From Octopus vulgaris (lineage: Eukaryota): a stretch of 64,000 bases of DNA. The stretch is from positions 78,120,001 through 78,184,000 of the forward strand of contig OX597816.1 in NCBI GenBank assembly GCA_951406725.2, written 5' to 3'. This document shows, piece by piece, positions 16,317 through 64,000 of the stretch (positions within the stretch are counted from its first letter, which is position 1; each line of letters starts with the position of its first letter). Below the pieces are notes generated by a model. The model did no database searches. It was not told the DNA's origin and saw only the letters and a list, made by a program, of their open reading frames with translations. The position numbers were made by a program, and so were the translations under genes.

Positions 16317-16363
<47 letters not shown>

Positions 16364-16391
16364 AAAATAAAAACATGCTGCCAAGGATTCA

Positions 16392-16475
16392 GCGGTACAT
16401 ATGTTTCGGGCCTTTATTAGACAGATTTATAACAATGCATAATGTATGTCTGTGGCCTTCTTCAGAACTCCGCGC
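16392..16475 (-). ncRNA. Type I hammerhead ribozyme motif (PLE-type), core intact, stem I offset by 4 nt
   Basis: GCGG-aguu-CUGAAGA-aGGCC...GGCCc-GAAAC-AUAU-GUA-CCGC; palindromic stem III ACAUAUGU. Confidence 0.7.
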
Positions 16476-16597
16476 ACAACAGCTTCACACAAGGACATGT
16501 GTTACATCAAAAATTCTTGGTTGGGGATGCAAATGCCCTAGCTCATTCCCCAACCAAGAATTTTTGATGTAACACATGTCCTTGTGGAAGCTGTTGT

Positions 16598-16677
16598 GCA
16601 CGGCTGAAGAAGGCCACAGACATACATTATGCATTGTAATAAATCTGTCTAATAAAGGCCCAAAACATATGTACCGC
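16598..16677 (+). ncRNA. Type I hammerhead motif, G12>A mutant copy
   Basis: CGG-CUGAAGA(16604-16610)-aGGCC...GGCCc-AAAAC-AUAU-GUA-CCG; a CpG-type transition at 16662 destroys GAAA. Confidence 0.65.
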
Positions 16678-16808
16678 TGAATCCTTGGCATCATGTTTTT
16701 ATTTTTGATCAATTTACTCCACCACCTACACCACCAAACGGTATACACAGGTGCTTATAATTATCAAGTACTCACCCCGAATTTATTATATATATATATA
16801 TATATATA

Positions 16809-18487
16809 CACTACCGTCAGAAATTAATTAGCACCCTTGATTTGCTCTTCACTCAAGGTATTTGCTGTCACCTAGTGGCCATATCTCGAACTATTGCTTT
16901 GTTGTGAGTTCACTGTTGTGCAGAACGATGACGTAACGTTGTTTGCAGAGCAGTTTGAGAGTCTACAGCCTAATGATGTGGACATAGCAGTGCAACAACA
17001 ACTTGGAGTGCGGATGCAGACAAATCTTCCTTTGTTTAATAGATATAGGTAGCGCCTCGCAAGGACCAAAATCACACCGTACTAAGTTTTCTCATTGTGT
17101 AAGACGTTTTGAACAGCTCGTAGGTTAATTGAATTGTGTATTTGCAAGATTTTTTTTCCTCACAAATTCTCCTACACTCTGCTTGATGACGTCACTTCCG
17201 GTTCACAAAACTTTCTGTTATACATCAAATAAGGTGAGAAATTCTGCTTTCTTTCTTTTTTGCTTAATGAATAATAACTCATAGCAGTTTTTTTATAGCA
17301 TAACATTATTCAAATGAATAGTTTTAATGAAAATAACTGGTTTTTATCGTTCATTCCTAGATGGGCCCAGGACCTCGCATGACCTTGGAGAGACGGTACG
17401 AGGCTCTCTCGTGGCGTGAGAAGCTGTCGGAGGCTGCAATAGCCAGAAAACTTGGTGTAGCCAGGCGCACAATTCAGTGCTTATTTAAGAAATACGAGGA
17501 AACCAGATCAGCAGCTGACAAAAAGGGTAGGGGACGGAAGAGGCTGACGACCCAGCAGGAGGACCGGATGCTGATCCGAAAGTCACTGTACAACCGAAGG
17601 GCAACGAGCCGGCAACTGGCGGAGGAGATGCAAAAGATGACAGGGAAGCAGTTGTCTACAACCACCGTCAAGACCAGATTACTGGAAGCCGCTCCTTACA
17701 GCCCAAAACCGGAAGAGGCGGCTGCTCTGGCCCCGTGCCCACAAGACATGGACCGTGCAGCAGTGGCAGACAGTGATGTTCACTAACGAGTCGCGATTCA
17801 GTCTCGTCAGTGACAAGCCTGTCCATGTGCGACGCTGCAGGGGTGAGCGCTTCAACAAAGACTGCATTGCTCCCACCATGAAGCATGGTGGGGGTGGTTT
17901 GATGGTGTGAGGGGCGTTCAGCTACAGTGGTGTTGGGCGGCTCTATGCCGTCGAAGGCAACATCAACGCAGCAAAGTACGTTGAGATAGTACGGGATACC
18001 TCTTTTGTGGCGAGGAGTACGTGCTCCAGCAGGACAACGCGCCTTCCCACACAGTCAAGCTCACAACCGGTTTCTTCAAGGACCATGGAGTGACGGTCAT
18101 GGACTGGCCTGGCCAGTCACCTGACCTGAACCCTATTGAGAACCTCTGGAGTCGATTGGGTAGGGATTTGAATGTGCAGCAATACAGGAACCGACACGAG
18201 CTGTTTGGAGCACTTCTTGCTGCATGGAGGGCCATCCCTGCACAGTACCTGCAGGCACTCATAGACAGCATTCTGACCTGCGTAGCAGCTGTCATTGCTG
18301 CCAAAGGAGGAGCAACAAGATATTGACTAAATTTCACGATTAATAACAATTATGTGGTGTGCTGGGATATGTTTTAATAAATTTTTGATTAAAAACGAGT
18401 TCGTTTCTGATAATAAGTTAATTAAATTAAGAAAATGTAAGAAAATGTAGAAATTTGAGAAGTGCTAATTAATTTCCGACGCAAGTG
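16809..18487 (+). mobile_element. Tc1-family DD34E transposon, near full length
   Basis: TIRs CACTACCGTCAGAAATTAATTAGCAC / GTGCTAATTAATTTCCGACGCAAGTG, inserted in (TA)n. Confidence 0.95.
17361..18326 (+). pseudogene. Tc1 transposase pseudogene
   Basis: HTH (IARKLGVARRTIQ), GRGRKRLTT, VMFTNESRF (first D>N), KHGGGGLMV*GAF, QQDNAPSH...SPDLNPIENLW with 34 residues between D and E. Frameshifts near 17690 and 18000, plus a TGA stop. Confidence 0.9.
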
Positions 18488-18810
18488 TATATATATATAT
18501 ATATATATATATAGATGATGGTTTGAAGTGGTGCATAGATTTTATACACTAAGAAAAAGAAGGTAGTCAGGAGTTGGATAAAAACTATTGATTTAGCGAG
18601 TTTGTCCCTTTCAGAGAGTCGTCATGAATGATTTCTTACGGGAAATTCATGTCTTTTATATGTGAGTTGCATAAAAATCTGGAGTTAATTTGGTTTACTT
18701 GGGTTTTGGAAAAAAGATGTTTTGAGAGTGGTTATTTGAAATGTTCTTTGTCATTTTGAATCTATATGTGTGTATGGTGAATTTTTAAACAATATATACA
18801 AACAATTATA

Positions 18811-19345
18811 CACTGAACTGCAAAAGAAACACGAGATGTGATTGTGAGATATGTTTTAATTTCATTATGTCAGAGATAAATTTTGATAGATCTGATAAAG
18901 TCAATTTCTTAGATGCACTTTGACCACAGTCTATGGGTCATTGTCATGTGTTTTGGTGGTGGGTGGATCCAGCACATCGAGATTGTAGGGTGTGACATGT
19001 TCAATACTGCCTATACCCTCCCTGGGTGTTCAAAATAGCTACAGACCGTTGCTACATGAAGTGCATGAGGTGGTTTGCAAATGTCATTGGCACCTGTGCC
19101 TACACCCTGAGGAAAGCTGCTTCCAGTCCCATACAAGTTGTTAGCCTTGGGACCACCTGGTTCAGCCATCTCACTGAATTTCATTCCACAGGTATTCAAC
19201 TGGGTTCAAATCCAGGCTGAGAGCCAGCCATGGCATGATTCTGATGTGCTGACGCAAGAAATCCATGGTGACCCTGGCCACGTGGGAGGGAATATTGTCC
19301 TGCTGGAACACGTGGCTATGTTGATGTGTGAAGAAGGGTATGAAG
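18811..19345 (-). mobile_element. 3' fragment of a second Tc1 family
   Basis: Minus strand QQDNIPSHVARVTMDFLRQHIRIMPWLALSLDLNPVEYLWNEIQ; TA|CACTGAACTGCAAAAGAAAC TIR-like end. Confidence 0.8.
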
Positions 19346-19999
19346 GTGATGTCTTAGGATCTATATCTCTCTCTTCCTATATTCAAATATCCCATTTATA
19401 TTCTGATCCTTTCCTTAAAACACTACTCTCACCTCATTCATATAAACTTTGCTTACTCCTTATAATTTCACCATTAAAATTAAATTGCATGCTTAAATTT
19501 CTTACATTAAAAACTCTTAAATTCTATTTTGGATGCTGTTCTATAACCATCAGCACTCTCACTGTTTTCAAGACCAATTTTTCTTAGCTTTATTTCATAG
19601 TTACGCATTACCACTTCTCTCACTCCACACAGATTACTTTATTGGTACACAAAACTGAATCTTGTCCAATCTCTGCTTTTAATATTTGGTCCCTTCCAAT
19701 ATGAGACTCGGACAATGTTTACAATGAGATATAGTTCTTCCTTCAAAATTTGCAAAATTAGTCAGAAATGAAATTTCTAAGATCTTATCTGATATATCCT
19801 ACATAAATTATCTTTTACTTTCTTACAGGCAGCAAGTATATATGACTGGTACAAGAACTCATTTTTAACTTAATTTCCAGAGAGTGGGGGTCAAATCTAA
19901 TCAATATATTAATACAATTATATGGCTGAAAAGTTTAAGAGAAAGTTTAGCAAAAGAAAACTTGTAGTATTTTAGAATTTAAAAACATCTTTTAACTTT

Positions 20000-20292
20000 T
20001 AGTCAAATTAATCCTATTTTTTAAACCTGGTACTTATTCTATAAGTGTCTTTTGCTGAACTACTAAGTTACAGGAACATAAAGAAACCAACACCAGTTGT
20101 TAAGTGATGGTAGGGATCAAACACAAACATGCATATAAATACACGTGTTTCTTTCAGTTTCAGCCTACCAAATCCATTCACAAAACTTTGGTTGCTCAGT
20201 GCTATAGTTGCATAAACTTGCCTAAGTAACAAGCAGTGGGACTGAACTTAAACCAACGAGTGAGAAGCAACCTTCTTACAAGTCACCATGCT
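20000..20292 (-). mobile_element. tRNA-derived SINE (decayed)
   Basis: Reverse complement of the family at 29979-30370. Confidence 0.7.
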
Positions 20293-20612
20293 AGTGCATA
20301 TATATATAAATGATATGCATGTATGATATATATGACAGGCTTGATACTGAACCTGAAAGCATGTGATGTGAACAACACAATTATATATATATTTAGTATT
20401 ACAAATTTGGGATCTTACCAACAGAACCACAACTCCTATTTCAGTACAACCTTATTGTCTGGAATACACATAGAAAGTTATATCCTATATAATAATAAAA
20501 TAATATAGGCATTTTAAAACCTACTATAAAGTACAATAAAATTATTTTAAAAACTTATCAAATATTTGAAAAATATATAAAAACTTATAAAATATTTGAA
20601 AAAAATATATAA

Positions 20613-22512
20613 TTTGCCAATGTTCTGCGCCGTGAGGATGAAAGACTTGAGGTATTTCGTGTTGCAAGACAGTGTGTGAGAGAGAATCGTGACGTGGTAG
20701 GAGAGAAATGTGTTCGCAAGGATGACGGTTCACTTGCGCTAAATGAGGATGCAAAGAGAGAGGCTTGGAGACGCCACTATGAAAGGTTGCTGAATGAGGA
20801 AAATGAATGGGATAAAGAGAGTCTGCCGAATGTCGACCCAACAGAGGGACCAGCAATCCGAGTTAACAGTTCCTTAGTAGTTAAGGCAATTACAAGCATG
20901 AAAACAGGGAAAGACCCAGGCCCATCAGGAATTACTGCAGAGATGCTCAAAATATCTGGTAGTATCGGCTATAGCCTAGTCACCCGTATAGTTAACCAGG
21001 TGATAGACGAAGGAGTCATACCCAATGACTGGTGTAGCAACATAATAGTCAACTGCTACAAAGGTAAAGGTGACGCCCTAGATACAAATAACTACAGGGG
21101 TATCAAGCTGCTGGATCAGGTAATGAAGGTTACGGAGAGGGTTATAGCCCAATTAATTAGAGAGAGTTAGCTTAGATGAGATGCAGTTTGGGTTCGTGCC
21201 AGGGAAAAGTACTACTGATGCTATATTCCTGGTAAGACAGCTGCAGGAGAAATACCTAGCCAAAGATAAGCCCCTGTATCTGGCTTTTGTTGACATGGAG
21301 AAAGCCTTTGACAGGGTCCCCCGATCCCTTATCTGATGGTCAATGAGGAAACTAGGGATAGATGAATCGTTAGTGAGAGCTGTGCGAGCTATGTACAGAG
21401 ACGCTGCTAGTAAGGTGAGGGTTGGCAACGAGTACAGTGAAGAATTCCGGGTAGAGGTTGGGGTCCACCAAGGTTCAGTCCTCAGTCCCCTCCTATTTAT
21501 CATAGTCCTCCAGGCAATAACGGAGGAATTCAAGACAGGATGCCCCTGGGAGCTCCTTTATGCTGATGACCTTGCTCTAATTGCTGAGTCACTATCAGAA
21601 CTAGAGGAGAAGTTTCAGGTGTGGAAACAAGGATTAGAATCGAAGGGCCTTAGAATCAACCTAGCCAAAACTAAAGTCCTAATAAGTAGGAAGGTGGACC
21701 AATCACAAACGACTTCAGGTAGATGGCCCTGCTCGATCTGTAAAAAAGGTGTAGGTAGAAACTCTATAAGGTGCACCAAGTGTAAGCTATGGACACATAA
21801 GAGGTGCAGCAATGTCAAAGGAAGGCTAACTAGGAAAATAGTTTTTGTCTGTGGCAGATGCTCAGGAGCAATAAACACTGGAAATGTGCAGAGACCAACT
21901 TCTACCACATTCCAGGGAGACAAACTAGAAGTAGTTGATAGCTTCCGCTACCTAGGTGACCAAGTCAGTAGCGGGGGTGGGGGTGCTGAAAGTGTAACTG
22001 CTAGAGTAAGAATAGCCTGGGCAAAGTTTAGAGAGCTCTTACCCCTGCTGGTGACAAAAGGCCTCTCGCTCAGAGTAAAAGGTAGACTGTATGATGCATG
22101 TGTGCGTACAGCCATGCTACGTAGTAGTGAAACATGGGCTGTGACTGCTGAGGATATGCGTAAGCTCGCAAGAAATGAAACCAGTATGCTCCGATGGATG
22201 TGTAATGTCAGTGTTCATAATCGACAGAGTGTAAGTACCTTGAGAGAAAAGTTGAACCTAAGAAGCATCAGTTGTGGTGTGCAAGAGAGACGTCTGTGCT
22301 GGTATGGTCATGTGACGAGAATGGCTGAAGATAGTTGTGTGCAAAAGTGCTGCACCCTAGCAGTTGAGGGAACCTGTGGAAGAGGTAGACCCAGGAAAAC
22401 CTGGGACGAGGTGGTGAAGCAGGACCTTCGAACTTTAGGTCTCACCAAGGAAATGACTAGAGACCAAGACCTATGGAAGTATGCTGTGCGTGAGAAGACC
22501 CGGCAAGACTAG
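20613..22512 (+). pseudogene. RTE ORF2 (RT with embedded PHD finger), disrupted
   Basis: Frameshift in an AG run near 21160 and TGG>TGA near 21334; otherwise open; the endonuclease domain is missing. Confidence 0.9.
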
Positions 22513-22718
22513 TGAGGCCATAACCCGTGGCCTCTACCTGGTATGTAGCCAGTCGACTTATACATACCTTTCCTTCTTGGGACACAAAACTCCACTTGTG
22601 AAGACCCGTTGAGGCAAGTGAAAATCAAAAAATCAAAATCAAAATCAAATCAGATATCAGAAAGCAGAACCAAAATCGAAGTCGCTCAACATCAATGGAA
22701 ATTGCAGCTGTGATACCA

Positions 22719-23122
22719 GTGCCGGTGACAGGTAAGCGAACCATCCGATTGTGGCCGTTGCCAGCACCACCCCGACTGGCCTCCGTGCCAGTGGCACGTA
22801 AAAGCACCATCCGTTCGTGTCCGTTACCAGCCTCGCCTGGCCCCCGTGCCGGTGGCACATAAAAGCACTATCCGTTCGTGGTCGTTGCCAGCCCCGCCTG
22901 GCCCCCGTGCCGGTGGCACATAAAAAGCACCATCCGTTCGTGGCCGTTGCCAGCGCCGCCCCGACTGGCCTCCGTGCCAGTGGCACGTAAAAGCACCATC
23001 CGTTCGTGTCCGTTGCCAGCCTTGCCTGGCCCCCGTGCCGGTGGCACATAAAAGCACCATCCGTTCATGGCCGTTTGCCAGCACCGTCTGGCACCTGTGC
23101 GGGTGGCACGTAAAAAGCACCC
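22719..23122 (+). repeat. Tandem array of 7 units (~61-66 bp) in the RTE 3' UTR
   Basis: Unit core CGTGCCRGTGGCACRTAAAA(A)GCACCATCCGTTCGTG. Confidence 0.9.
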
Positions 23123-23644
23123 ACTACACTCACGGAGTGGTTGGCGTTAGGAAGGGCATCCAGCCGTAGAAACACTGCCAGATCAGACTGGGCCTGATGC
23201 AGCCTTCTGGCTTCACAGACCCCAGTTGAACCGTCCAACCCATGCTAGCACGGAAAACAGACGCTAAATGATGATGATGATGATTTACCTGTTGTTAGTC
23301 TATGGGGAAAGAAGATATTTTTAATCAATGCTACACATGTTTCTGCACAGTGGTGTGTTTTTCCAGGCTATACCTATTACATAAATCCACCAGATAGGTA
23401 GTGAAATTTTGATGTGTTTATAATATTAGTCATTGAGGGTTTCTTTATGCCTAGCATTTTCTAGATATATCGGTACTGTATTTTTAAGTGTTTAATTTTA
23501 TTAATTTAATATTTTAATTTTTTTTATTTTAAAAAATATATTTGTAAGTTATATATTTTTATTTATATTCTTATTTTTCTATTTAATATGTATTAGAATA
23601 TGTAGTTTTAACTTTGATCCGTTAACAATAATAACAATAAGATA

Positions 23645-23730
23645 AATAGCCTGAGGACGCATTGGTGGATTTATGTAATAGGTATAGCCTGGGAAAACAC
23701 ACCACCAGCACAGAAACACGTGTAGCATTG
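23645..23730 (+). ncRNA. Type I hammerhead ribozyme motif (PLE-type, decayed helices)
   Basis: AAUaGC-CUGAGGA(23651-23657)-cgcaUUGGUGG...CCACCAGcaca-GAAAC-ACGU-GUA-GCAUU; palindromic stem III ACACGUGU. Confidence 0.7.
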
Positions 23731-25171
23731 ATTAAAAATATCTTCTTTCCCCACAGACTAATAACAGGTAAAGTGTATATATTTTTTCAAATATTTTATA
23801 AATAAGTTTTTTAAATAATTTTATTGTAATTTATAGTAGGTTTTAAAATGCTAATATTTTATTATTACATAGGATATAACTTTCTATGTGTATTCCAGAC
23901 AATAAGGTTGTCTTGAAAAATCCCAAATTTGTAATAATATTATAAATGATACTGTTTACATTGAATTAGAAAAGTCTAAAATAGTAAATGTCCTGATAAC
24001 CTGAAATACTTTTTATTCCCTAAGTTTTTTAAAAAAAATATGTGTGTATGTATATGGTATGTGATGAGAATTTATGGAAAGGTATCCCATAGAAACTCAA
24101 TGAACTGTTAAAGATGGAGAAGAGATGTTAAGATTTAAAAAAGAATTTAAAACATCCATATGATGGTTTCAAACAGAAATTGCCCCTTTGGAACCCTCCA
24201 AAGTAAAGGATGAAATAGAACTCAACCTTCTCTCACACACACACACACACACATATATGCCATGCCTGCACCTGTTGTATAAACAAACGTAAGTAAAAAC
24301 AAAAATACCTGCTCTAAGTATTTAAGCATTGGATTGCCCAGCCTGTCATCAATTCAGAAAGCATTTTATTCCACACCTCATTTTGTGTACCAAATATTAA
24401 AGTAGAGCCTAATCTAGTTTGGTACTAATGTCTTATTTTCATTAATTTCTAGGTCATAAAAAGTGAATAGGAAGAGTAAATACTCCATAACTCAGTTCAC
24501 TGAACCATTATCCATACTAATGTATTAAAAGTTTCTCAAGTCAAGCAATATATGAAACAAGGTTTTCTAATTGCTTCAGTGTATTAACACTTAATTTTAT
24601 GCTCATCTATTTATGATTAACATGCATAAAAGATATATCCTAATCTTAAGAGTTGTAGTAGTGGCCTGGTTTAGTAGTTTAGAACATCCATTTAGGAACA
24701 ACATTATCAATTTCAAAATTTAAAAAAGGAAAAGACATCCAAAGGAGGCAAAACTATTGAGTTCCAAAAAAGTGAAAATTTCCTATACAACAAATTGCTG
24801 GAGCTGAACAATAGAAAGCTAAAAATTTGTTTTCATTAGTCTTTAAATGGTAGGAATGGGTTACATGGGAGAAAAAAAAAAGAAGTTTTTTTTTTAAAGG
24901 CAATTTTTATGCATATCTTCAGTTTAAATAAATTCAAAATCTATAATAATAGTTAGTCTCTCACACAATAGAATGTGCCATAAAACATACACTTTCCTTT
25001 GATGATGCCCATATCGATGTACAATTTTTGAAGCATCAATTGATAAATGTGCACTGTTCTCTAATGAAACATCAATTGACGATGCCTGCTGTTTCAGGGT
25101 TAATGGCTAAAGTCATTAATATCTGATCATGCATATTCTCAAAAGTCAACAGTTTTACATTATTTCTAATA

Positions 25172-30370: not shown

Positions 30371-30929
30371 TAGCACTGATATCAAGAGCAACAACATTGT
30401 TTCTTACAATAGAAATTTAGTATATATCATAAAACTGAAATGAAATTATGTTTATATTGACTAGGATCAGTTCTGCCATGCCAAAATATATAATCATTGG
30501 AGAAACAAGGAGTTTAGGCAATCTAAATCATTGGAAAACATCATAAAAATTCTCTCCAGCTTCTGCATGACAAACATTTTTCAGAGATAAAGTAAACAGA
30601 TTGGAAGAATAGTAGTAGTAGTAGTAGTAGTAGTATAGTAATACTTCCTCCTACCCATCAACACACTATTGTGACTGGCACAGCTAGCTATCATCACTCC
30701 ATCTGCTACAACCATTCAGTATAGATTAAGCTCCTCCTTCCATCTCCAACCATTCACTTCAAAGAATTCATAAATAAACCCTCCAGCCTACCATAAAATC
30801 TTCCCCTATGGCTCCTCAAGCCACAATGAAGGCAAGTTTTCTAAAAGACTATTAACTCCAAATAAAGTGTAGAGGGGAACAGTTTAGTTCAGTCAAATAG
30901 TATTTGACTTAAACTAAACTGGCCTTTAA

Positions 30930-38942: not shown

Positions 38943-38944
38943 AA

Positions 38945-45031: not shown

Positions 45032-46160
45032 ATCATCGTTTAATGTTCAATCTCCATACTAGCATGGGTTGGACAATTTGACTGAGGTCTGGCGAACCAG
45101 ATGGCCTGCACCAGGCTCCAATCTGATCTGGTAGAGTTTCTACAGCTGGATGCCCTTCCTAACACCAACCACTCCGAGAGTGTAGTGGGTGCTTTTACAT
45201 GCCACTAGCACGAGGGCCTGTCAGGCAGTACTGACAATGGCCACGCTCAAATGGTGATTTTTATGTGCCACCTGTACAGGAGCCAGTCCAGCAGCACTGG
45301 CAACAATCTCGCTCAAATATTTTTCACGTGCCTCCAGTACAAGTGCCAGTAAGGCAACACAGGTAACGATCACGCTCAAATGGTGCTTTTTACATGCCAG
45401 TGGCATGGAAGCCAGTTTGTTGCTCTGCCAACAATCACACTCCAATGGTGCTCTCAGCGCTCCACTAGCACGGATGCCAGTCATTGAATTTGATTTCGAT
45501 TTCACTTGCCTCAACAGGTCTTCACAAGCAGAGTTTAGTGTCCAATGAAGGAAAGGTACGCATTATATAAGTGGGCTGGTTACACTACTAGCATAGGCCA
45601 TGAAGTTATGGTCTCACTTGGCTTGCTGAGTCTTCTCAAGCACAGCATATTTCCAAAGGTCCCAGTCACTAGTCATTGCCTTGGTGAGGCCCAATGTTTG
45701 AAGGTCATGCTTCACCACCTCATCCCAGGTCTTCCTGAGTCTACCTCTTCCACAGGTTCCCTCAACCGCTAGGGTGTGGCACTTTTTCACACAGCTATTC
45801 ACATCCATTCTCGCCACATGGCCATATCAGCACAGTCATCTCTCTTGCACACCACATCTGATACTTCTTAGGTTCAACTTTTCTCTCAAGGTACTTACAC
45901 TCTGTCGAATATGCACACTGACATTACACATCCAGCGGAGCATACTGGCTTCATTTCTTGCAAGCTTACGCATGTCCTCAGCAGTCACAGCCCATGTTTC
46001 ACTGCCATGTAGCATGGCTGTTCGTACACATGTGTCATACAGTCTACCTTTTACTCTGAGCGAGAGGCCCTTTGTCACCAGTAAAAATGGAGCTCTCTGA
46101 ACTTTGCCCAGGCTATTCTTATTCTAGAAGCTACACTTTCAGTGCACCCTCCCCCTTACT
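45032..46160 (-). mobile_element. 5'-truncated RTE LINE
   Basis: TKGLSLRVKGRLYDTCVRTAMLHGSETWA...GRGRLRKTWDEVVK, plus array and tail. Confidence 0.92.
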
Positions 46161-50021: not shown

Positions 50022-51106
50022 TGGGCAAGGTTCAGAGAGCTCCTACCTCTGCTGGTGACAAAGCCTCTCTCTCAGAGTAAAAGGTAGACTGTATAACGTA
50101 TGTGTACAAACAGTCATGCTACATGGCAGTGAAACATGGGCTGTGACTGCTGAGGACATGCGTAAGCTAGCAAGGAATGAAGCCAGTATGCTCCATTGGA
50201 TGTGTAATGTTAGTGTGCATACACAACAGAGTGTAAGCACCCTGAGAGAAAAGTTGAACTTAAGAAGCACCAGATGTGGTGTGCAAGAGAGATGACTGTG
50301 CTGGTATAGTTATGTGTTGTGAATGGATGAGGACAGCGGTGTGAAAAAGTGTCACACCCTAGCAGTTGAGGGAACTTGTGGAAGTGGTAAACCCAGGAAG
50401 ACCTTGGATGAGGTGGTGAAGCACAACCTTCAAACATTGGGCCTCACCGAGGCAATGACTAGTGACTGAGACCTTTGGCGATATGCTGTGCTTGAGAAGA
50501 CCCAGCAAGCCAAGTGAGACCATAACCTGTGGCCTATGACAGTGATGTGTAACCAGCCCACTTATGAGTATCCTTCATTCATTGGACAATAAACTTTGCT
50601 TGTGAAGAACTGTTGAGGCAAGTGAAATCAAAATCGTTGACATGGCTGATGACAGTACCACTTGATTCACACCTGTGCCAGAGGAATGTTAAAAGCACCA
50701 TCCGAGTGTGATCGTTGCCAAGGCCGCTAACTGGCTCCCGTGCCAGTGGCACGTAAAAAGCACCATTTGAGCGTGATTGTTGCCAGTGTCGCCTTAGTGG
50801 CACCTGAAAAACAACATTCGAGTGTGGTCGTTGCCAGTGCTGCCAGACTGGCTCTTGTGCAGATGGCACATAAAAAGCACCATTTGAGCGTGGTCATTGC
50901 CAATACTGCCTGACTGGTCCATGTGCTGGCAGCACGTAAAAGCACACACTACACTCACAGAGTGATTGATGTTAGGAATGGCATCCAGCTGTAGAAACTT
51001 TGCCACATCAGATTGGAGCCTGGTGCAGCCTTCTGGCTCGCCAGTCCTCAAACCGTGCAACCCATACCAACATGGAAAGCAGACATTAAATGATGACGAT
51101 GATGAT
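50022..51106 (+). mobile_element. 5'-truncated RTE LINE
   Basis: Colinear with 22018-23284; begins in (TA)n and ends in (GAT)n. Confidence 0.92.
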
Positions 51107-54100
51107 ATGTGTGTGTGTGTTCTACACAAATGTGACCTCTGCAAGTCATAATGAAAGCAACCCATCAAGGAGAGCAAACTCAAATTAAAATGAAGAGTAG
51201 AGATGAATCTTTAGTATTGTTACAGATATTTAGTGTTAGTATGATAAACTATATGCATTCACACTGGAAAGACATCCAGGTGTAAAAACCAAGCAAAAAA
51301 AGAAAAACAAAATCACATATACGAGTAGATTCAGTTTACTTTGTTGCTATGTATGCCAGATGATGAAGAACCTCAGCAAGTAGTGATAAGGGCCACAAGA
51401 CAGTCAACAAAAATGGACATAAAATGATAAATAACAATTTTCTTTACAATATGAATAAAACCTAGTCGTGATGTTATAGAGTCATTAAATCAAATGACAC
51501 AATTGCGATGTCCAATGGCAGTAATAGTTGGCAATGAGAAAAGATTCCAATAGTTGAAAAATAAAGAGTTGGCAATGACCTACAGAACATATACTGTAGC
51601 AGCAAATATAACATAAAAAAATTTGTTAGTGGTATATGAAAATAGAAGAGTCATCACCATTTTTCAGTCTACTTTTCCATGCTGGCATGGGATGGACAGG
51701 TTGTCATGGCTAAAGTAAGTTCTTATATTATTCCAATTTTTGATGTGGTTCTATGGCTGGATGCTTGTCCTATCACCAATACTCAAAAGTAGTATTGAAA
51801 ACAAAACTTTCATGCAAATAAATAAGCAGGAATTGTATATCTGATGGAACTTTATTAATTAAAACATGTATATATTAAATTGACTATTTATATTCTATTA
51901 ATTATGGGTGTTTTTTTTTTTGAAATGTGATCCTTTGCGCAGCAACCAGTAAATAAATCGAAGTATATATTGATATATCTTGAGATAAAGTTAAGATGAA
52001 AATTTCAATTGGGGCCTGAAGTCAAAAGAACTGTTTTTAGTTCATCTCATGAAATTCCAACATACTTAGACTCCTTTTACTTCTATCCAGATTTATATCA
52101 ATGCAAACTTTAACTTGTCAATGCTAGTGACTATCGTTAATACAGCTAATCCCTTAGTATATTAAAATATATTAAACAATGACAATAGGTAAGAATCAGC
52201 TACTAAATTATTTCGTAAATTTTTCCACCTAACTTAATGATATTCAAAATACTGCAATAAGTTTTCTCTTAATGCAAAATGTTTCAATTTAAATTTCTTG
52301 CATTAAGAGAAAATTAACTGTAATTCGTCACACTTTCTGGCTATTAGATTCTTTTAGCAAAATTTAATTTGTTGCAAGTACATATATCAAACACCAAGAT
52401 AAAAGACAACTCTATGCACTCCTATTTGAGAGAGAGAGAGAGTGCACTAGAAGAAATTTCCATCTTTTAAATTTTCTTTCCTCTTAAAAAACATCTTTTC
52501 CTTTATGTCACCTTCCAAATTAAACATATTTCCATTTTAAATAGATTGCACAAAACTACCTATTCTCCATCCATATTTTCCCTTTCAATCATTAATCTGA
52601 AAGAATTCAAACTAGAAAAATCAACATCTTCATTAATCTAATTTTTAAAAAAGGAAATAAATATACTAGTATATGTAGTGCAAACTTTGTCATGATGTAA
52701 TTAGCACATCATATTCAGTAACCAAGCACAGTGCATTTGTCAGTGGACCAAACAATCATTGATGTTGGTGATAATTACAACTTAGATTTTTACATTACTG
52801 TTTAATCTGCAGCTACACATACCAGCTAAATCTCCTTTCAATCACACTCAACTATCTTTAAAAACAGAAAGATGTTGCATGATAGGTACACTAAAAAAAT
52901 GGAATATCTGATTATAGGCCTGTTTGATCAGGGCTAACCTGGGGTTAAACAACAAAAACATAAAACATGTTGGAAAACCTGACAGAAAATAAGATGAATG
53001 ATCTGAAACCTGTTGCACAGCATTTATTAATATAATGGCATGATGGAAAACATGTAAACAGATGAGATCAATAATTAAATCAAGAAAACCTCAGAACAAA
53101 TATAAATTTTTAACCAATAAGAAAATTCCTAGTTCTCAATTGAAATGGTGGTGCTAGAACATGAATTGTTATAACACTTCATTCAATCTTCGTCTGTAGT
53201 GGAGCTGTTATTAACTGGAAGCATGAATGCAAAATGGCATGAATGTATGCATGTGATGATTATTAGAAACACTCTTGGAATTCATCTTTAACCTACAACA
53301 TATTTTGATAAAAACGTGAATTTGAAAGACAATTTGCATACATTATACACTATCAGAAAAATAAAACAGGAACACGCCAAATAAAGCATGTGTAATCAAA
53401 AAGGTCTAAAGAACTCGTAGAAATAGATGAAATGCCTTAGGAACTGAACTCAAGACCAATGAGTCGACTATCCAATAACAAATACTTGTACTTGTTAAAT
53501 CAATCGGATAATAAACTAAGTTCTAATACAACACAAAACATTAGCAGTGATAATTTCTGTCGAGTATCATTAATTTCTTTAATTGGCTCTTTTACTAACA
53601 ATATAGACACAGACTGTCCTTTCAACTATACACATTTAATTTGGCGGAAAGTTGCAACCTAAAATTAAAACACCTCCCACGTTTATAACTAACTACTATC
53701 GGATGATACGTATTTATTTTAATAATGGGAAAGATCACAAAAGACTTCTCTAAAAACAAATAAATCTGTTGCCTTTCAAAATATTGTCTCATTCATTCTC
53801 TTTCACTGAAAAAATGTGCCTGTCGGATAATTTGATAATTGATAATTTAGCTGGTCAGGGAAAAATTTGGCGATTAAAGTGGGAAAGCTGTTTTTATGCT
53901 GAAAAATCTATCATTAATCGCATTGCTTTAGCTAAATTTTCTAAATGTTAATTTTAAGGTTATAAATGTTATGCAATATAAATTGTTGTATAAAAGACTA
54001 CTTTTTGTTATACGGTGGGGTGGAGTCGGTGAACTAGAAAGCGGGGAACATAAAAATAAAGATTATGCTTGAGAAAGAAGGGTAATAAAGAAATGCAAAT

Positions 54101-55658
54101 ATTTTCTAACTATACGTCAAAAGAAAATGTGTTCAGCAGTCTGACGTTTAACATCATTCTACAGCAAGTTTAGAGAGAAAGAGAGACACAGACAGACAGA
54201 GTGAGTGGGAGATACAGAATTTAGTTAAAGACTTATGGGAACATACTTCGAATTCCAAAATGTTGTTAAGCTAACTTAGTGGGTGGATGAGGTTGCGCCT
54301 AAAGCAAAGGTAGCTAGCTGACCTATACGCTTTTCAACTGAAATTGATATTACAGTCTTTTTGCTCAATCACAATATCTTCTAGTTTTTCTAGTCTGATT
54401 AGCATATCTTAGATTAGTGTTTAATAATCTTCCGATGTTGACGTGACGTAAGCACCAACTGTTTCTTCCGAAGACAGCTGTTGTTGCAATGAGATCCCGA
54501 TCAAAAAAAAAACTAACCGGAAGTATGAGCTGGCAACCACTTCCGACAATCTAACTGTCCAGTAGTAAAAAGGGGGAGTTTCTTTCAATTAATGGTTTGC
54601 AGTTAATTCACTTCATGTCGCGGTTTGTGTATTAAGACTTCGTCGCATATACAATGAAAATAAAAGAGATAAATTCGAATAAAGTATAGAGAATCGAAGT
54701 ATGATGCACATGCCAATATGCACATATATATTATATGCCCGCTCGCCAATTTCCACTTCAATAGTAAATTGTTACCGGCAGAGAGGGAAAGTAAAAAGGG
54801 GAAAAAAGAGAAAAACTTGATGCTTGTTTACCGAATGAATATACTATAGTTCTCATTAAACTATTTATTAAAACCTAAGTAGCTAAATATATAGATTGAT
54901 TCTTTTTACTGGAGTAAATTTACTAGCAATATATTTCCAACAGAATGAGACATGTTTATATAAAGTATTTGCCTTGCTATTACACACAAAATTCTGAACT
55001 GACTTCAGATGTTAACCGTCCATCTATAAATACTTTAGCAGTCATTACGATATAAAATTGTATGAGCTTAGGTAAATCTTTCGAGAGAGAAAAAAAATGA
55101 ATCGAGCTAAGGTAAACGAGTGAGTGGATTGGAAGAGGTGTGCCGAGTAGAACCGGAGCAATTATAATGTGTTAGTTACCTTTTAACTCGAGTACATGGG
55201 GTACATAGTGATTACGATAGTACGAGATAACAATTTAGTTGACGTTTGGGACACTTAGAGTAATACATAAGACAAACAAGAGCATTAAACATAAACAGTA
55301 ATTAAGTTCTCGCTAGAAATTTCTAGCTTCTGTTTACTACTACGTTTTATAATATAGACTTCTGGAACGAAGAAATAAGGAGAATAATTGTTCTGGCGTG
55401 ATGAATAAATAAATGAATAAAACAAATAGGTTCCAAATGACATAATGTGTCAATGACCATAACCGAGTCAATGTTTTTGTTTTTGTATTTTCCTGAAACG
55501 AGGAAGTTATAAATGTAGACAGAATATAAAGCATTATTTGGAGTGGGAATGAAAATAGAAAGAGATAGTAACATATATACATTATATATATGTATATATA
55601 TATTATATATATATGATGAAGTGTGTGTGTGTATATATATATATATATTTCTACTTAC

Positions 55659-55822
55659 AGAATACCACTACATGACGTGCAAACATAAGAGCCAATAGTC
55701 ATATTCACATAGGTTGGTCCACGTTGGTGACAGTCAAAGCACTGTTTATTTTGAGACAGAGCTACCATATCACGTAACATTTTAAGGTGTTTTTCATCTT
55801 GACGTCTCTTGTTAGTCGCCAT
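55659..55822 (-). CDS. AGFG1: ArfGAP with FG repeats protein (AGFG1/HRB/drongo-like), coding exon 1
   Basis: Encodes MATNKRRQDEKHLKMLRDMVALSQNKQCFDCHQRGPTYVNMTIGSYVCTSCSGI, an ArfGAP CxxC-x16-CxxC zinc finger closely matching the AGFG1 N-terminus. Good Kozak context (AAGATGG). Ends with CT|GTAAGT donor, phase 2. Confidence 0.95.
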
Positions 55823-56276: not shown

Positions 56277-56346
<70 letters not shown>

Positions 56347-57266: not shown

Positions 57267-57672
57267 TAATTTCATATATATATATATTAAAACCACATTA
57301 ACTGCAAATCCAGAACCAAGGGAAACACAAATATGAATGAAGAAAAAAAAAGAAGAAAGAAAAGAAAACATCAATTCATAATTTACAGATTGAATGAACG
57401 AAAAGTCTTGGGTATGCAACCAGTAAACAGTCACACAGATATATTACCATAAGTTTGGCTCCCAAGCTTGCTAGTGTTTATCTGCATTACTAAATTCAAT
57501 ATCAACATGCCTTGGATCTCCTTATAACCACTCTTGATGCCATGGATCTAGTCCTGGATGAAGAAGTCATAGTTTAAGTTTAAATTAATGTGAGTACTGT
57601 TATGTGTTTTCTATATTAAGCATATCTAGCACTCATCTATAATCTGTATGCATCATATACATATGTTTATTT

Positions 57673-58147
57673 ATAAAACCATATGAGATATGAGAGGTAA
57701 ATGTGTATTTATTTAGCAATGTGATTTCTATAAGGGTTACAACTATTTCGCTACCTTCTTCATGTCATACTAATATCTGTATGGAAGAAATTATGTGTAC
57801 ATGTTTGCATTAATATATATGCTCAGCATTATACAGTTCAATAGTAAATTCACAAATTAATGCAAATAAAGAAAGCTAGCTCATCAGATCATTTGAACGT
57901 GAGTTGAAATACTGGTGTAACTATGATGTTCCAATTATCTAATGAGCACGCTTTCTTGATTTGCATTAATCTTTGGATATACAGTTGTATTGTATAATGC
58001 TGAACATATATAATGCAAACATGTACCTATAATTTCTTCCATAGTGAAATTAATACTACTTAAAGAAGGTTGCAAAATGGCTGTAATCCCATGGAAGTTG
58101 CATCATTAAATAAATATATATTTACCTCTCACGTCTCATGATTTTAT
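57673..58147. repeat. Older fold-back element (~230-bp arms, ~12-nt loop)
   Basis: TGAGAGGTAAAT/ATTTACCTCTCA, ATGGAAGAAATTAT/ATAATTTCTTCCAT, CAGCATTATACA/TGTATAATGCTG and ATTAATGCAAAT/ATTTGCATTAAT are nested symmetrically. Confidence 0.85.
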
Positions 58148-58149
58148 GG

Positions 58150-59250
58150 TTTTTTACACTGCCGTCGACTGGATCTTCTGGATTTTCAGTCACATGGACA
58201 TTCTATGTTACACTTCTTTGTAATTGATTACAATATGGAATGATAGCCAAGTCCATATCAGGAGCTTTCTGAGATATCTGCATGATTCTCTGAATCCACA
58301 TCTTATATATGTATGCACCAAATGGTTTGCATGAGTGCAGACATAGTCAACATTACAGGTGAAAAGAAAGGTATTATTACATGAATTGGAGAGTCATCAG
58401 GTGAGACTGGGTTTCAAAATCATGGGTGTGGCTGCAGAGGTGATGAAGGCAGAGGAATTTTGAATAGGAAATTCAAGGTGGTTGAAGTGGTGGGAGATGA
58501 AGTCAAGATAAGAGTGGAAGGTGGTTCTTTTATAGAAAGCAGACATGGAGAGGAAGTTGTTTAGATAATCTAACGGTAACAGAGATTTTAAGGAAATTGA
58601 CAGAGAGAGAGGGAAGACAGTAGAAGAAGTGAACTCAAAGTTTAAGAGGATGCAATTGATGAGGGTGGTGAGTTTAGTATGGATGAGCAGACATGGAGAG
58701 GAAGTTGTTTAGATAATCTAACAGTAACAGAGATTTTAAGGAAATTGACAGAGAGAGAGGGAAGACAGTAGAAGAAGTGAACTCAAGGTTTAAGAGGATG
58801 CAATTGATGAAGGTGGTGAGTTTAGTATGGATGAGCAGACATGGAGAGGAAGTTGTTTAGATAATCTAACGGTAACAGAGATTTTAAGGAAATTGACAGA
58901 GAGAGAGGGAAGACAGTAGAAGAAGTGAACTCAAGGTTTAAGAGGATGCAATTGATGAAGGTGGTGAGTTTAGTATGGATGAAAAAGGTGGCTCCAGTAT
59001 AATCATCAATGTGCCTACCAGATAGTTTAGGAACGGGACCAGTGAACTGGGCAAAGATTTGAGCCACAACTGAACCTACAAAAAGGCTAGCATAGTTTGG
59101 GCCCACCCTGGTTCTAACAGTTTCTTCAGTGACCTGCGGGTAAAATTTGCTGTTGAAAGAGAAACAATTCAAAGTAAATTCAAGCTCTGCAAGGCAGAGG
59201 AGACTAGAGGTGTTGGGCTTGAGGACAATGTGATAGACTCAGAAGTACTT
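58150..59250 (-). mobile_element. Decayed Penelope-like retroelement (RT plus GIY-YIG remnant)
   Basis: NCFSFNSKFYPQ...GPNYASLFVG...RHIDD (PLE RT: GP.YANLF, RYIDD) and ISYSKFLCLHHLCS (IPYSQFLRL..LCS). Confidence 0.8.
58539..58982. repeat. 148-bp tandem triplication
   Basis: GCAGACATGGAGAGGAAGTTG starts at 58539, 58687 and 58835; copies differ at only a few bases. Confidence 0.95.
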
Positions 59251-59689
59251 GAGAGAGAGAAGACCATCATAGTTATCATCATACAAGTGTCATTAACGCA
59301 TTCTGCAATGCCTGTAATATCATTTGCATCTTTGCACTCATGCTCTGTACCCCTCACCTTTGACCATTCACCTTTTCCCCCTTACCTTCCACATTTAGTA
59401 GTAAAGATCCTTTTTGTATTATAAGTTACAAGGCAAATTCACTTGTGAATGTGTGTGTGTGCACATACACATGTGTGTGTGAGTGCACATGCATGTCTAT
59501 GTGTTTTTTTGAGTGTGTGTATGGGTTTGCTTACTACACTGTTTGTACCCATGTCTTTTACTTATTTTTTTTTGTTTTTTTATTCATTTATTTATTTACT
59601 TTTTTTTTCTCACAGTCTTAAGTATGTGTCTTGTGTGTGTATACTATTTCCAATGTACACGGAAGTAGTAATTAGCTCAACATGTGAGA

Positions 59690-60000
59690 AAGGAGCAATA
59701 AAATACTTGCTAATCAATGAGTGTACTCAGTGCAAATGAGAGCACAAAAGATACTGTGGGCCTCTGGGGAATTGACAAGGAATCAAGAATTCAAATTTGA
59801 GGAGGTAGGAGTGCACATAAAATATACTTGAATATTCATGAAATATTCGATGGTTCACTTGAGGTAACAGATAAATTTGGTCATTTAGGTTACATAATTA
59901 GAGATAGATGGGGTTGTATTGACTATATGTAGTTTGAGTAAGAAAGAAGTGAAAGAAGTTCATGAAGCTATTACTTTTGTTGGCAACAAAGGGTTTTTGA
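59690..60000 (+). mobile_element. Old RTE fragment (PHD plus RT thumb)
   Basis: CTQCK..HKR, LEVTDKFGHLG, KFMKLLLLLATKG. Confidence 0.6.
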
Positions 60001-60841
60001 AACATTGCTTGGCAACAGCTTCACCCTTTCTCCATTGAATGAGCAAGAAAACTATTAACCAATAAGGAAGTCTCTATATCAGACAAAGGCAAGATGCAGC
60101 CAGTGGGACTTTCAGAATGGTATACCAATACAAAATTACCTTGAATATGTTTAATAGAGTAGCTCATCTGATGATAAACCAAGACTCATGTGGCCCACTT
60201 CTCAAAAAAAGTTGCCCATGGCTGCTCTGTAGAATGACTCTACCTACTGGAAATAACAACCAAATAATCCTCATACTATTTTTAAAATGAAATACACACT
60301 GGATAATGTAATCTTAGGTACACTATACTTATAAAAACAGTTATCATGATTGGAAGTGTTTAGGTCAAATATTTGTTTGATTAGGGCTGATTTATAGCTA
60401 AAGAACAACAATAACAAACAAACGTACTCTACCTTGATTTCAACTCACTTTATAACAATGGCAACAAATTTTATCTTCATACAAAAAAAGTGAAGCAGTA
60501 ATAGTAATAGTGAGTGTGATGAAGCATGATAATGAGGTGTGGGCATTGAATGAAGAAGTTCTATGAAAGTGGAAGAGAAATGAATTGAATATGATTCATT
60601 GAATGTGTTTATTGACTTATGTATGAATAACACACATAGGCTGAGAGAGTGACAGACCATTAAAGGTAAGAGTTGACATAACTGGAGAGATGACTGTACT
60701 GGTATTAATATGAAATATTGAAGATGAATATTAGGAAAATAGGTGTACTGCCTGGGACATAGGTAGAATACTGCCAAATCAGCTATGACTGAGTAGACCT
60801 ACAATCAAAAGAAGTCCAGCTTTGAACATTCCATATTTATA

Positions 60842-61863
60842 TCTATATATATAAAACTGTAGTTGTGTGAGTGTCTGTCCCCTTCGATTTAGATTCCTAA
60901 CTACTCCCACATTTTGCGGGAGTAGTTAGGAATACCAAATTCGGGTATCTTATAGTCGTGATTCATATCGAGCCTGTCTGGGTATTAGTGCGCGTCTACG
61001 ATGAGTCTACAATTTTAAAAATAATTTAACATAATTTTTTATTCCATTTTAATGCATATTTTTTCATGTGTCGATGGCGGCGGAGTTGGCGTCCACGCTC
61101 AAACACCTGCACCTGTGTTGCTTCTCCCCCTTCTTCCCTCCCTCGTGAAGCTGTGGGGAAGGGAGTGTAAGGAAATCAACGTCGTAATGCGTTGTCAAGG
61201 AGACCAGCGTTCTTTCAGAACAACGACTTCATGGCTTGAAGTCGCCAAAACAGAAATCGCTAAAAAAACTGAAACAGATACACAAAAACGGCAATTACCG
61301 CCACACAGGGCAGGTTTCCTGTGCAAACAATTTGCACAACCGAATGTTTTAGTTGTTGCACAAATCTTTATATATAAAAGTAAGGTTGTGTGTCTGTCTC
61401 CTACGATTTAGATTCCTAACTACTCCCACATTTTGCGGTGCAGTGTAACCAAAACCGGGTATCTTATAGTTGTGATTCATATCGAACCCTTCTGGGTATT
61501 AGCGCGCGTCTACGATGAGTCTATGATTTAAAAAAAATTTACCATCATTTTTTATTCCATTTTAATGCATTTTTCGCTATTATATAAGGGAAGTAACTCT
61601 CTAAAAATGTCTACGATGAATCAACGATTAAAAAAAAAATTACCATCATTTTTTATTCCATTTTAATGCATTTTTCGCTATTTTATAAGGGAAGTAACTC
61701 TCTAAAAATGTCTACGATGAGTCAACGATTTAAAAAAAAAATTACCATCATTTTTAATTCCATTTTTAATGCCTTTTTTGCTATTTTTTTGCTATAACTC
61801 ACTAAAAATGCTTATATAGTTATTTCCCTTACAAACCCGAGCAACGCCGGGCGATACTGCTAG
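60842..61863 (+). mobile_element. Composite non-autonomous Helitron
   Basis: Two 5' ends (TC at 60842 and 61365), internal ~100-bp tandem repeats at 61508-61800, and one 3' hairpin plus CTAG|T. Confidence 0.85.
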
Positions 61864-62188
61864 TTTTAATACAAAATGTATCTATTAGTTGATCAAATAG
61901 GACTACATTAGATGATAAGGTGTGATTTAAGAAAGATTTGGTTGATATTTCCAACAGGTAAACTGTCCACAAAGACTCTCACACAATGCATGGTTACAGA
62001 TGAAGGCAAGTAGTGATATGCCATATAACAGACAAGTCCAAATCATGTCAACAATGACAAAATAAGAAATAGCTTTAACTGATAATAAATATTAAGTTTT
62101 GCTGATTGAAGCTTATCTCTGCTCTATAAAATTCATGATTTGTTTTAAGTTGGAAGTTGTGATGTTCATGCTTTGTTAAATGCAATAA

Positions 62189-62409
62189 TCCTTTAGCATT
62201 CAGATTACTCTGTCTAATGTAATGCTTATTTATTCATATCGTTTTGAATTAATTATGCATTATCTTTTAGCTTTGCAATTTCGATGATGTGATTGTTTAT
62301 TTTCAGAATGACAAATCAGGATATGATTGAGAAGCAGGATCAGGTCAGTTTAAACATAAAACAGGTAGAATATTTGGGCCAGATATGGCTGGTTCAAATG
62401 CTAAAAGGG
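62189..62409. mobile_element. piggyBac-like MITE
   Basis: ATAA|TCCTTTAGCATT...AATGCTAAAAGGG|TTAA. Confidence 0.65.
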
Positions 62410-63588
62410 TTAATGCTAAAAATGAAGTGAAATGGTTATAAACCCAGTCAGCTGAAAGCTTACCTCTGCACTTCAGCACTAATAACTTAAGTATTCAGTA
62501 CAAATGCTACTTATTATTATACCAAGAGTAATAAATGAATATTGCTTTAACTAGGAGCACAACACAGTGGTTGACATAAGATATAGATTTATGACTATGT
62601 GGTCAATATTCCAGGCCATTAAGCTCATAACTATTTTTCAATAAATAAAGTTTTTAACAAAAATCAGAGCTTGATAACATGCATGATTATTGAATCTACA
62701 TATTTAGCATTATGACTATTGTACATGAGAGCACCAATGAGAAATATGATAGTTACTTTAGATGCAAAATCAAGAAAATTTAAATCTCAGAAATGACATT
62801 GGTTTTATATTCCTATATAAATCTATGATTCAAGTATTCAAGTTAAAATAATTTCCCAGTTTGGATATGTGGGGGAAAAGAGAGACCAGAATCTTGATGA
62901 TTCAAGTAAAGCCCTTCAAGTGACTAACAAAATTATTCAAAAAATGTTTATGTTAGCATAGAGATATATCCACAAAAAAAGAAAAAAAAAAGAGATGGGA
63001 AAGTATGGTAAAGACAGGGGAGATAACCAAGTTAAAGGCACATTGATAGAAGGTCAGTGACCAGAGTAAGAGTGAAATTTGGAGAGGAAGGACAATAATG
63101 AATTAAACAGAGGGTAATATGCATCCTAGATGAGGAAAGTGGGATAAAATTTGAAACTGATATTGAAACAATATGATTATGTAAACATGTGTATCAACTG
63201 TACCAATGTACATAAACACATTAATACAATAAATTTAGGAAAATAGAAATGATTTTTTATTTGTTTTGACAAGAAAATGTAATGCACAGAAGTAGGAAGC
63301 AAGAATCTGTGTCAGTATGTATATGTATACAAGTTTTCTGAAGGTTCGAAGTAGCACTGCATTAGAAAAAATGTATTAGGGAGGAATTATAAAGGTAAAG
63401 AAGAAGGTCACTACTGGGTAAGATGGGTGTTTGTTAATGGAGCAGGAAAAAGTGGCAACATTTATCACCATAATGCAGTGAGGAAGAGTGAAGTTTAGAT
63501 AAGATGGGGATATATGTATGTAAATATATATGTAGAAGGTTAAAAAGGAACACACGAGTTGATATATATGGAAAAGTCAAGGTAGAAC

Positions 63589-63890
63589 ATGCTAAAATAT
63601 GGCAGTGTCTGCTATAGCCTAGTCACCCATATAGTTAAACAGGTGATACATGAAGGAGTCATGCCCAATGACTGGTGTAGCAGCACCATAATCAACTGCT
63701 ACAAAGGTAAAGGTGACGCTTTAGATACAAATAATTACAGAGGTATCATGTTGTTAGATCAAGTAATGAAGGTCACAGAGAGGGTCATGATCGTTGCTAA
63801 GCATGATCGTTGCCAGGGCTGCTGACTGGCTCCTGTGCCAGTGGCATGTAAAAAGCACCATTCGAGTGTGATTGTTACCAGTGTCGCCTT
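63589..63890 (+). mobile_element. Internally deleted RTE fragment
   Basis: MLK...PNDWCSS...NYRGIMLLDQVMKVTERV (equivalent to 20943-21145) joined directly to 3' UTR array units. Confidence 0.85.
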
Positions 63891-63892
63891 AC

Positions 63893-64000
63893 TACCCACA
63901 TAGAACTTGTTGCATTTGTTACATTGTATTCTATAGTGTATAGAATACAATGTAACAAATGTAGCAAGTTCTATGTGGGTAGCACAACAAGACCATTCTA
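63893..64000 (+). mobile_element. Penelope-like GIY-YIG endonuclease fragment preceded by its own inverted copy
   Basis: Plus strand IVYRIQCNKCSKFYVGSTTRPF; 63893-63983 forms a hairpin with ~43-bp arms. Confidence 0.8.

Follow-up and report, generated by a model that had tools for sequence, protein, structure and literature searches.

Four palindromes, E1 to E4, in a 64-kb stretch of the Octopus vulgaris genome (assembly GCA_951406725.2, contig OX597816.1, positions 78,120,001 to 78,184,000 of the forward strand; the whole stretch is called the window here and positions are counted from its first letter) are assigned with high confidence to the head-to-head insertion class of Penelope-like elements (PLEs). 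Each of them contains a 5'-truncated copy in inverted orientation that adjoins its partner head to head. It is likely that four unrelated PLE families left one such pair each, as one-off, dead-end events. E1, whose family is well represented in public sequencing contigs, is very probably a dead-end insertion and not a spreading hairpin. Regarding the way in which the arms were made, there is about an even chance that they derive from two complementary DNAs (cDNAs) primed from opposite target strands. It is proposed more tentatively that head-to-head PLE insertions are products of twin priming, that this can be read from the side of the tail relative to the side of the loop, and that such insertions possibly contribute double-stranded RNA (dsRNA) that is edited.

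The palindromes and their hammerhead cores

All four palindromes were recovered in place by self-comparison of the window. In E1 (16360-16709) the arms match at 159 of 168 alignment columns (97.5% without gaps) around an unpaired centre of 19 nucleotides (nt; 16528-16546). In E2 (20393-23937) the pairing is limited to 23284-23392 with 23663-23772 (93.6%) and to about 20393-20586 with 23771-23937 (about 90%), and the centre of 270 nt is non-palindromic. E3 (57673-58147) has arms with 83.6% identity without gaps and a centre of 29 nt, and is older (84% arm identity). E4 (63892-63982) shows 42 matches in 44 arm positions and a centre of only 3 nt, and its right arm extends past the window end. 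Together the palindromes occupy 2.8% of the window. The first-pass annotation had described them as sequence-unrelated and of one common polarity, and both observations are real: the top cross-match among them is 14 nt long with an E-value of about 0.09-0.1 or worse, and the polarity is outward in all four (p = 1/16 for this alone). A self-search detected no further copy of any arm within the window. No target-site duplication (TSD) could be called at any of the four, where the flanks are microsatellite or decayed sequence; an AT-rich or (TA)n target is seen at both flanks of E1, at the left flank of E2 and at loose ends of the E1 family, and the left flank of E3 is AT-rich. Three more palindromes of 42-59 nt (30880-30921, 52258-52316 and 60887-60940) lack a CUGANGA word up to a distance of 150 nt; therefore, the hairpins in the window are not all of the PLE class.

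A core-only hammerhead motif (CUGANGA followed by GAAAY-N4-GUH within 160 nt) was searched on both strands of the window and matched three times, once in each of E1, E2 and E3 and always reading outward, compared to a mean of 0.525 matches in 200 local dinucleotide shuffles (three or more matches in 4 of the 200). The enrichment of hammerheads in the palindromes is real, and the earlier claim of hammerheads in three of them stands as far as the cores are concerned, but all copies found here carry damage. A strict three-stem descriptor (the core plus a stem I of at least 2 base pairs (bp) and a stem II of at least 3 bp) found no match in the window; therefore none of the arms taken singly represents an intact ribozyme. 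Additionally, the four hammerhead regions fold no better than shuffled sequence (z = 0.18, 0.38, -0.08 and -0.38), and a Rfam scan of the window with E-values up to 1 returned 22 matches, none of them a hammerhead, with sub-threshold microRNA (miRNA) matches on E1 and E4. The cores are not compact, the two conserved halves being separated by 51, 55 and 131 nt.

The two CUGAAGA words of E1 lie 139 nt apart, and about 99% of the E1-family depth in contigs of public runs reads G at 16662, where the right arm has A; the majority letters of the family bring back GAAA together with a 4-bp stem I. In E3 stem III is non-palindromic in both arms, and the stem II region (57756-57880, minus strand; 131 nt, with a closing helix of 11-12 bp and inner hairpins) is much longer than that of the published PLE hammerheads consulted in PMC4209133. 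At +7242 and -57185, 3' halves of hammerheads were also observed that have a palindromic stem III but stand alone, unpartnered by CUGANGA. They are possibly decayed solo PLE ends; such 3' halves are not above chance in the window (17 seen, 15.2 expected).

Within the window no hammerhead is seen in E4, whose assignment comes from coding sequence. It had been annotated as the mirror of a PLE GIY-YIG segment, and a mirrored GIY-YIG-like peptide is indeed present, with 62% over 21 amino acids to a reverse transcriptase (RT)-GIY-YIG-type protein (E 0.006), but its match to the GIY-YIG model PF01541 (E 0.048) is below the curated cut-off and a zinc-finger model ranks higher (E 0.018). The piece aligns to the endonuclease start of RT-GIY-YIG-type proteins fetched with a PLE RT remnant located beside E3. 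A Zn-finger-like linker joining RT and endonuclease, by which the Neptune clade is recognised, would fall outside the piece that E4 retains. The frame passes through the centre of E4, and the Ile codon before the centre sits in the mirrored arm at a position that is V, I or L in 20 of 21 fetched homologues, an agreement that hints at a microhomology of 3-4 nt at the joint.

Structure of the E1 family in public contigs

Part of E1 is present in 20 of 24 listed public runs, under four species labels; no RNA run with E1 was listed, which says nothing about its expression. Contigs of four public runs (1732, 858, 450 and 344 contigs per run) were aligned to 16528-16786, which comprises the centre, the right arm and the right flank. 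Added up across contigs, the depth on the arm mostly amounts to 1e4-1e6, compared to 5-35 for the shallowest listed contigs; depth is not a copy number, and it suggests a family of ten thousand copies or more. Over the loop (16528-16545) the depth is zero in all four runs, with about 7e3-1e6 in the neighbouring bins, and the contigs that reach 16547 (16, 11, 7 and 6 per run) run on into one non-palindromic upstream sequence. The loop of E1 is therefore not amplified. Pattern scans of metagenome contigs and viral contigs with E1, and of metagenome contigs with E2, gave no match.

Two fixed 3' ends delimit the family, one near 16709 and the other at 16784, with TA-rich sequence behind each. The first was found at the equivalent of 16705-16709 in 27, 19, 12 and 9 contigs per run, and behind the second, 7 contigs from one of the runs have loose ends of (TA)n. 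The depth over the tail is about 1e4-6e5 in most bins, so that 16710-16784 is family sequence; it starts with an AC-rich stretch. The left arm of E1 stops at the first 3' end and the right arm at the second, 75 nt apart, and the tail is thus one-sided. At the other end, the listed 5' loose ends of the family include positions 16547, 16587, 16594, 16626, 16658 and 16663. A second subfamily splits off upstream of 16594 in all four runs.

The loop itself can be attributed to one of the arms. Compared by eye with the family upstream consensus, its minus strand matches at 19 letters, interrupted by two gaps of 2 nt and exact over the 7 letters next to the arm, and its plus strand does not match. 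Since the match is on the minus strand only, the left copy is the 5'-longer one. The loop thus belongs to the tail-less left arm, with the tail carried by the shorter right arm. When the consensus of runs X3 and X19 is used, the switch point shows an inverted microhomology of 4 bp, extendable by 2 bp across a bulge. The two arms agree at every family-polymorphic site listed, at which they carry the majority alleles. The ATG at 16693 begins a frame that stays open for 32 codons and passes through the tail (by estimate, about 1 in 7 by chance); its resemblance to the start of an open reading frame (ORF) encoded by repeat plus tail, as reported in Adineta (PMC3846280), is only suggestive.

Origin of the head-to-head arrangement

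In the proposed sequence of events, a GIY-YIG endonuclease would cleave (TA)n or AT-rich DNA on both strands, as the flanks of E1 suggest; cutting of both strands has been seen in vitro for another PLE (Frangieh 2024, PMC11167929). Each 3'-OH would then prime reverse transcription, which would begin at either of two fixed sites on the borders of the tail; the E1 family has two fixed 3' ends, a situation with a published in vitro parallel (PMC11167929). Both cDNAs would halt early, likely at a small RNA hairpin, and their antisense 3' ends would anneal at a short inverted microhomology and be filled in; as these ends are identical in sequence, they could pair only in this way. Microhomology at the joint is shown at E1 and suggested at E4. 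If two cDNAs are joined like this, the sense strand must read outward, and hammerheads are expected in the palindromes because they are located in the terminal repeat, which is copied first. Two cDNAs with a microhomology joint could also produce the arrangement of tail and loop observed at E1 (n = 1).

Several observations weigh against the PLE assignment or against the twin-priming model. E1, E2 and E3 have no ORF for an RT or an endonuclease linked to them, so that the PLE origin of these three is argued from hammerhead, tail and target only, and a tblastn search with 17 long RT-GIY-YIG homologues listed no match in them. The tail of the E1 family has 75 nt, compared to 30-40 in published elements (PMC8557442). 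No contig in the four runs spans the E1 joint even once, which rules out its abundance and not its presence. With the consensus of runs X1 and X2 the microhomology at E1 is reduced to 2 bp, the E1 joint hairpin is unstable (-0.3 kcal/mol), and folding gave no joint hairpin at E4. The argument from tail and loop comes from one locus and from a loose-end consensus of 24-30 nt with two 2-nt gaps. Finally, centres of 29 nt or less in three of four palindromes have a probability of 0.001-0.035 under uniform independent-end nulls; such short centres favour an intramolecular fold-back, unless the RT stalls at the very hairpins that give rise to the microhomology.

The strongest competitor is self-priming, a possible route to the same class of insertion although a less probable one than two cDNAs. 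Here a free cDNA or an antisense RNA would fold back on a short palindrome and be extended, and the hairpin would be copied open with one side trimmed or stopped at the tail boundary, for instance by endonuclease resolution. It would account for the centres of 3, 19 and 29 nt, for the microhomology at the E1 joint, for the E4 frame that continues through the centre with its conserved-type Ile in the mirrored arm, and for the agreement of the E1 arms at polymorphic sites; the hypothesis has been published (PMC3846280), and the tail has been explained as endonuclease resolution in PMC8557442. On the other hand, it requires an additional step that removes the tail of the donor arm exactly at the family tail boundary, the hairpins are thermodynamically marginal, the centre of E2 is 270 nt long, and the agreement of the arms is weak because it concerns majority alleles.

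The first-pass annotation had preferred snap-back (self-primed) cDNA synthesis. Its simple target-primed form, in which one target-attached cDNA folds at its 3' end and copies itself, is improbable. The short centres and the microhomology agree with it, and E4, with a 3-nt centre and a short left arm, is compatible with it, but it fails at E1: the donor would be the loop-bearing left arm, which is tail-less and so could not have served as template for the 75 nt of tail on the right arm, and the tailed right arm is excluded as donor because the loop has the wrong orientation for it. The snap-back idea is thus lost in its simple form, given a tail on the shorter arm, and survives in those self-priming variants that short loops and microhomology keep in play.

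It is highly improbable that the palindromes are non-autonomous retroelements of hairpin form that spread intact with their two ribozymes, an idea also raised in the first-pass annotation. The abundance of the E1 family would suit such elements, terminal repeats alone were enough for mobilisation in trans in Adineta (PMC3846280), and tandem retrozymes have been proposed as non-autonomous PLE derivatives (bioRxiv 10.64898/2026.07.22.740005). However, propagation in this form is rejected for E1, given its zero loop depth in four of four runs and the non-palindromic upstream continuation of the contigs at 16547; moreover, no arm carries an intact ribozyme, the left arm of E2 is without half of the core and E4 is without a hammerhead in the window. 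DNA miniature inverted-repeat transposable elements (MITEs) or foldback transposons in which hammerhead-like words occur by chance would share the palindromic shape, the TA-rich flanks, the null folding z-scores and the lack of a Rfam hammerhead, but they are the least credible explanation (the first-pass annotation had also decided against MITEs), because E1 is no fixed unit (unequal ends with a one-sided tail, an inconstant centre of zero depth, copies that continue upstream), E4 has a GIY-YIG-like frame and three of three core motifs fall within 2.8% of the window. The earlier view of the palindromes as PLE products is thus supported, with twin priming from opposite target strands as the preferred origin.

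Genomic setting and comparison with known systems

Features of the palindromes and their surroundings (positions in the window)
Feature	Position	Strand	Remarks
E1 left arm	16360-16527	-	5'-truncated PLE end, tail-less, adjoins (TA)n
E1 left core	16396-16465	-	both conserved halves intact; stem I interrupted by 4-nt insertion
E1 joint	16528-16550	-	additional 5' sequence of left copy; microhomology TCCC/GGGA
E1 right arm	16547-16709	+	5'-shorter copy
E1 right core	16604-16673	+	private G-to-A at 16662 within GAAA
E1 tail	16710-16784	+	75-nt family tail, right arm only, adjoins (TA)n
E2 left arm, outer	20393-20612	-	ends at short (TA)n
LINE	20613-23283	+	2.67 kb, 5'-truncated; later insertion splitting E2 left arm
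E2 left arm, inner	23284-23392	-	starts inside hammerhead stem II, hence without CUGANGA
E2 centre	23393-23662	+	unpaired, 270 nt; at least the last 20 nt (with CUGAGGA) are 5' extension of right copy
E2 right core	23651-23724	+	core motif match
E2 right arm	23663-23937	+	hammerhead core and intron-like piece
AGFG1-like ArfGAP gene, first coding exon	55655-55822	-	next exon at about 55-150
E3 left arm	57673-57898	-	carries hammerhead core
E3 left core	57887-57738	-	131-nt stem II region
E3 centre	57899-57927	.	unpaired, 29 nt
E3 right arm	57928-58147	+	mutations in both conserved hammerhead halves
PLE RT/thumb remnant	58150-59277	-	matches RT-GIY-YIG proteins by tblastn, lowest E 3e-21
E4 left arm	63892-63935	-	44 nt; adjoins truncated RTE-type fragment
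E4 centre and right arm	63936-64000	+	3-nt centre, GIY-YIG-like coding piece, ends with the window

E1 and E2 are located within one intron of an AGFG1-like ArfGAP gene; a distance of about 55.5 kb separates coding exons one and two of this gene. The best named matches of this gene are mostly from gastropods, a chiton and bivalves at 82-89%, with no cephalopod among the 120 listed. The same intron holds several pieces of long interspersed nuclear elements (LINEs) as well as a Tc1-type element. A Tc1/mariner-type remnant with inverted ends (about 16805-18490; HTH_Tnp_Tc3_2 and DDE_3) lies in the (TA)n run behind the tail of E1, and two LINE 3' ends in this intron (45033-46110 and 50022-51096) of about 1.1 kb, 83% alike, stand inverted to each other 3.9 kb apart. 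This inverted pair is possibly another source of dsRNA.

The LINE nested in E2 is recognised by Pfam (RVT_1, E 2e-15) and we take it to be RTE-type. It landed within the mirror copy of an intron-like piece, around 20440-20612/23284. The piece itself, in the right arm (23768-23898), has 131 nt with GT-AG borders and 16% G+C, and would fit the intron retention described for PLEs (PMC2377424). The rest of the E2 centre is presumably also 5' extension of the right copy. A candidate endonuclease C-terminal motif at the start of this centre was not accepted, since it would need three frameshifts.

The RT/thumb remnant adjoining E3 appears to be a separate decayed PLE, distinct from E3, and by its motifs we presume it to be Neptune-like; an endonuclease remnant beside it, seen by eye, is probable. 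A full scan of the remnant against proteins found 479 of them, whereas a word-indexed search among longer proteins gave 550 candidates, none significant, and Pfam left two of its ORFs unrecognised. Inside this decayed sequence a 148-bp unit occurs three times with 98% identity (58538-58982), which therefore represents a recent local duplication. E3 was also considered as the terminal repeat of this remnant and the idea was rejected as unproven; the near arm of E3 faces the 3' end of the remnant, and nesting is therefore likelier.

As a class, these insertions matter little, because their structure, polarity, paired hammerheads and the self-priming idea are already in print. The novelty that the first-pass annotation considered possible does not hold: head-to-head joints and self-priming as their cause are found in PMC3846280 and opposite-strand hammerhead pairs in PMC4209133. 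Such palindromes are nevertheless easily misfiled as MITEs or miRNA hairpins. The side of the tail versus the side of the loop offers a countable genomic read-out of twin priming against self-priming, and, if this reading is true, the abundant E1 family (about ten thousand copies or more) would allow PLE insertion to be tested by counting. This use of tail and loop as a discriminator of mechanism was not found in the literature searched, which excluded key reviews and supplements; neither was an octopus catalogue of such insertions or a hairpin-propagating PLE derivative, in a search that left out the supplements, which may hold octopus families. Additionally, E1 in its intron would fold into a near-perfect duplex of about 165 bp. 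Palindromic repeats and Penelope copies of lizards have been tied to hyper-editing, and octopus is described as rich in such duplexes (Porath 2017, PMC5625713). If the proposed origin is true, the process would seed introns with near-perfect hairpins of short loop, which in an octopus could be a main dsRNA source for adenosine-to-inosine (A-to-I) editing.

Among known systems, the closest are the insertion units of the endonuclease-bearing PLEs Penelope/Poseidon, Neptune, Nematis and Naiad (PMC8557442), which share with the octopus palindromes the inverted truncated copy, a tail at one end, a hammerhead in the terminal repeat, a (TA)n target and an unresolvable TSD. For these, Craig 2021 (PMC8557442) reports an inverted 5'-truncated copy adjoining the 5' end, a tail that is often one-sided and a (TA)n bias, and calls this step of PLE insertion undefined; a curation guide (PMC8969392) gives the same insertion features. 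E1-E3 differ from these units in being too short for a recognisable ORF and, at E1, in the longer tail mentioned above. As Naiads are without canonical hammerheads, E1-E3 are unlikely to be Naiads.

The Penelope elements of Adineta vaga also have head-to-head inverted terminal repeats, an optional tail that extends the ORF start, and intron retention (PMC3846280). Arkhipova 2013 (PMC3846280) describes head-to-head as the commonest arrangement and reads the palindromes at the junctions as self-priming; the joints there are palindromes or a 15-bp overlap. Unlike the octopus insertions, those of Adineta have TSDs of 8-10 bp and low copy numbers, and the sections consulted of PMC3846280 draw no relation between the arm with the tail and the arm with the loop, on which the distinction of mechanisms at E1 depends. 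Regarding the ribozymes, Cervera 2014 (PMC4209133) reported dual hammerheads that lie on opposite strands at a distance of 100-700 bp and ascribed them to truncated PLEs. PLE hammerheads are likewise of type I; their helix I is short, the base after A9 is unpaired (as in E1) and helix III is small and palindromic (as in E1 and E2), but their published helix II has 6-8 bp, in contrast to the 51-131 nt between the conserved halves here (PMC4209133).

For Poseidon of Anolis (PAc), Frangieh 2024 (PMC11167929) showed that both strands are cut and extended in vitro and predicted a dimer. PAc resembles E1 in its AT-rich target and in having two RT start sites, one at each border of the tail, within a stem-loop that is AC-rich, comparable to the AC-rich start of the E1 tail; it belongs to another clade and another host, and the parts consulted of PMC11167929 offer no model for inverted joints. 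Non-LTR retrozymes (PMC7229834; bioRxiv 10.64898/2026.07.22.740005) are also protein-free, carry type I hammerheads and have been proposed to derive from PLEs, but they are head-to-tail tandems, whereas E1-E4 are head-to-head pairs with inverted arms and no further arm copy in the window. By their testable features, E1-E4 are thus filed as ordinary PLE insertion units, that is, as new families of a known kind.

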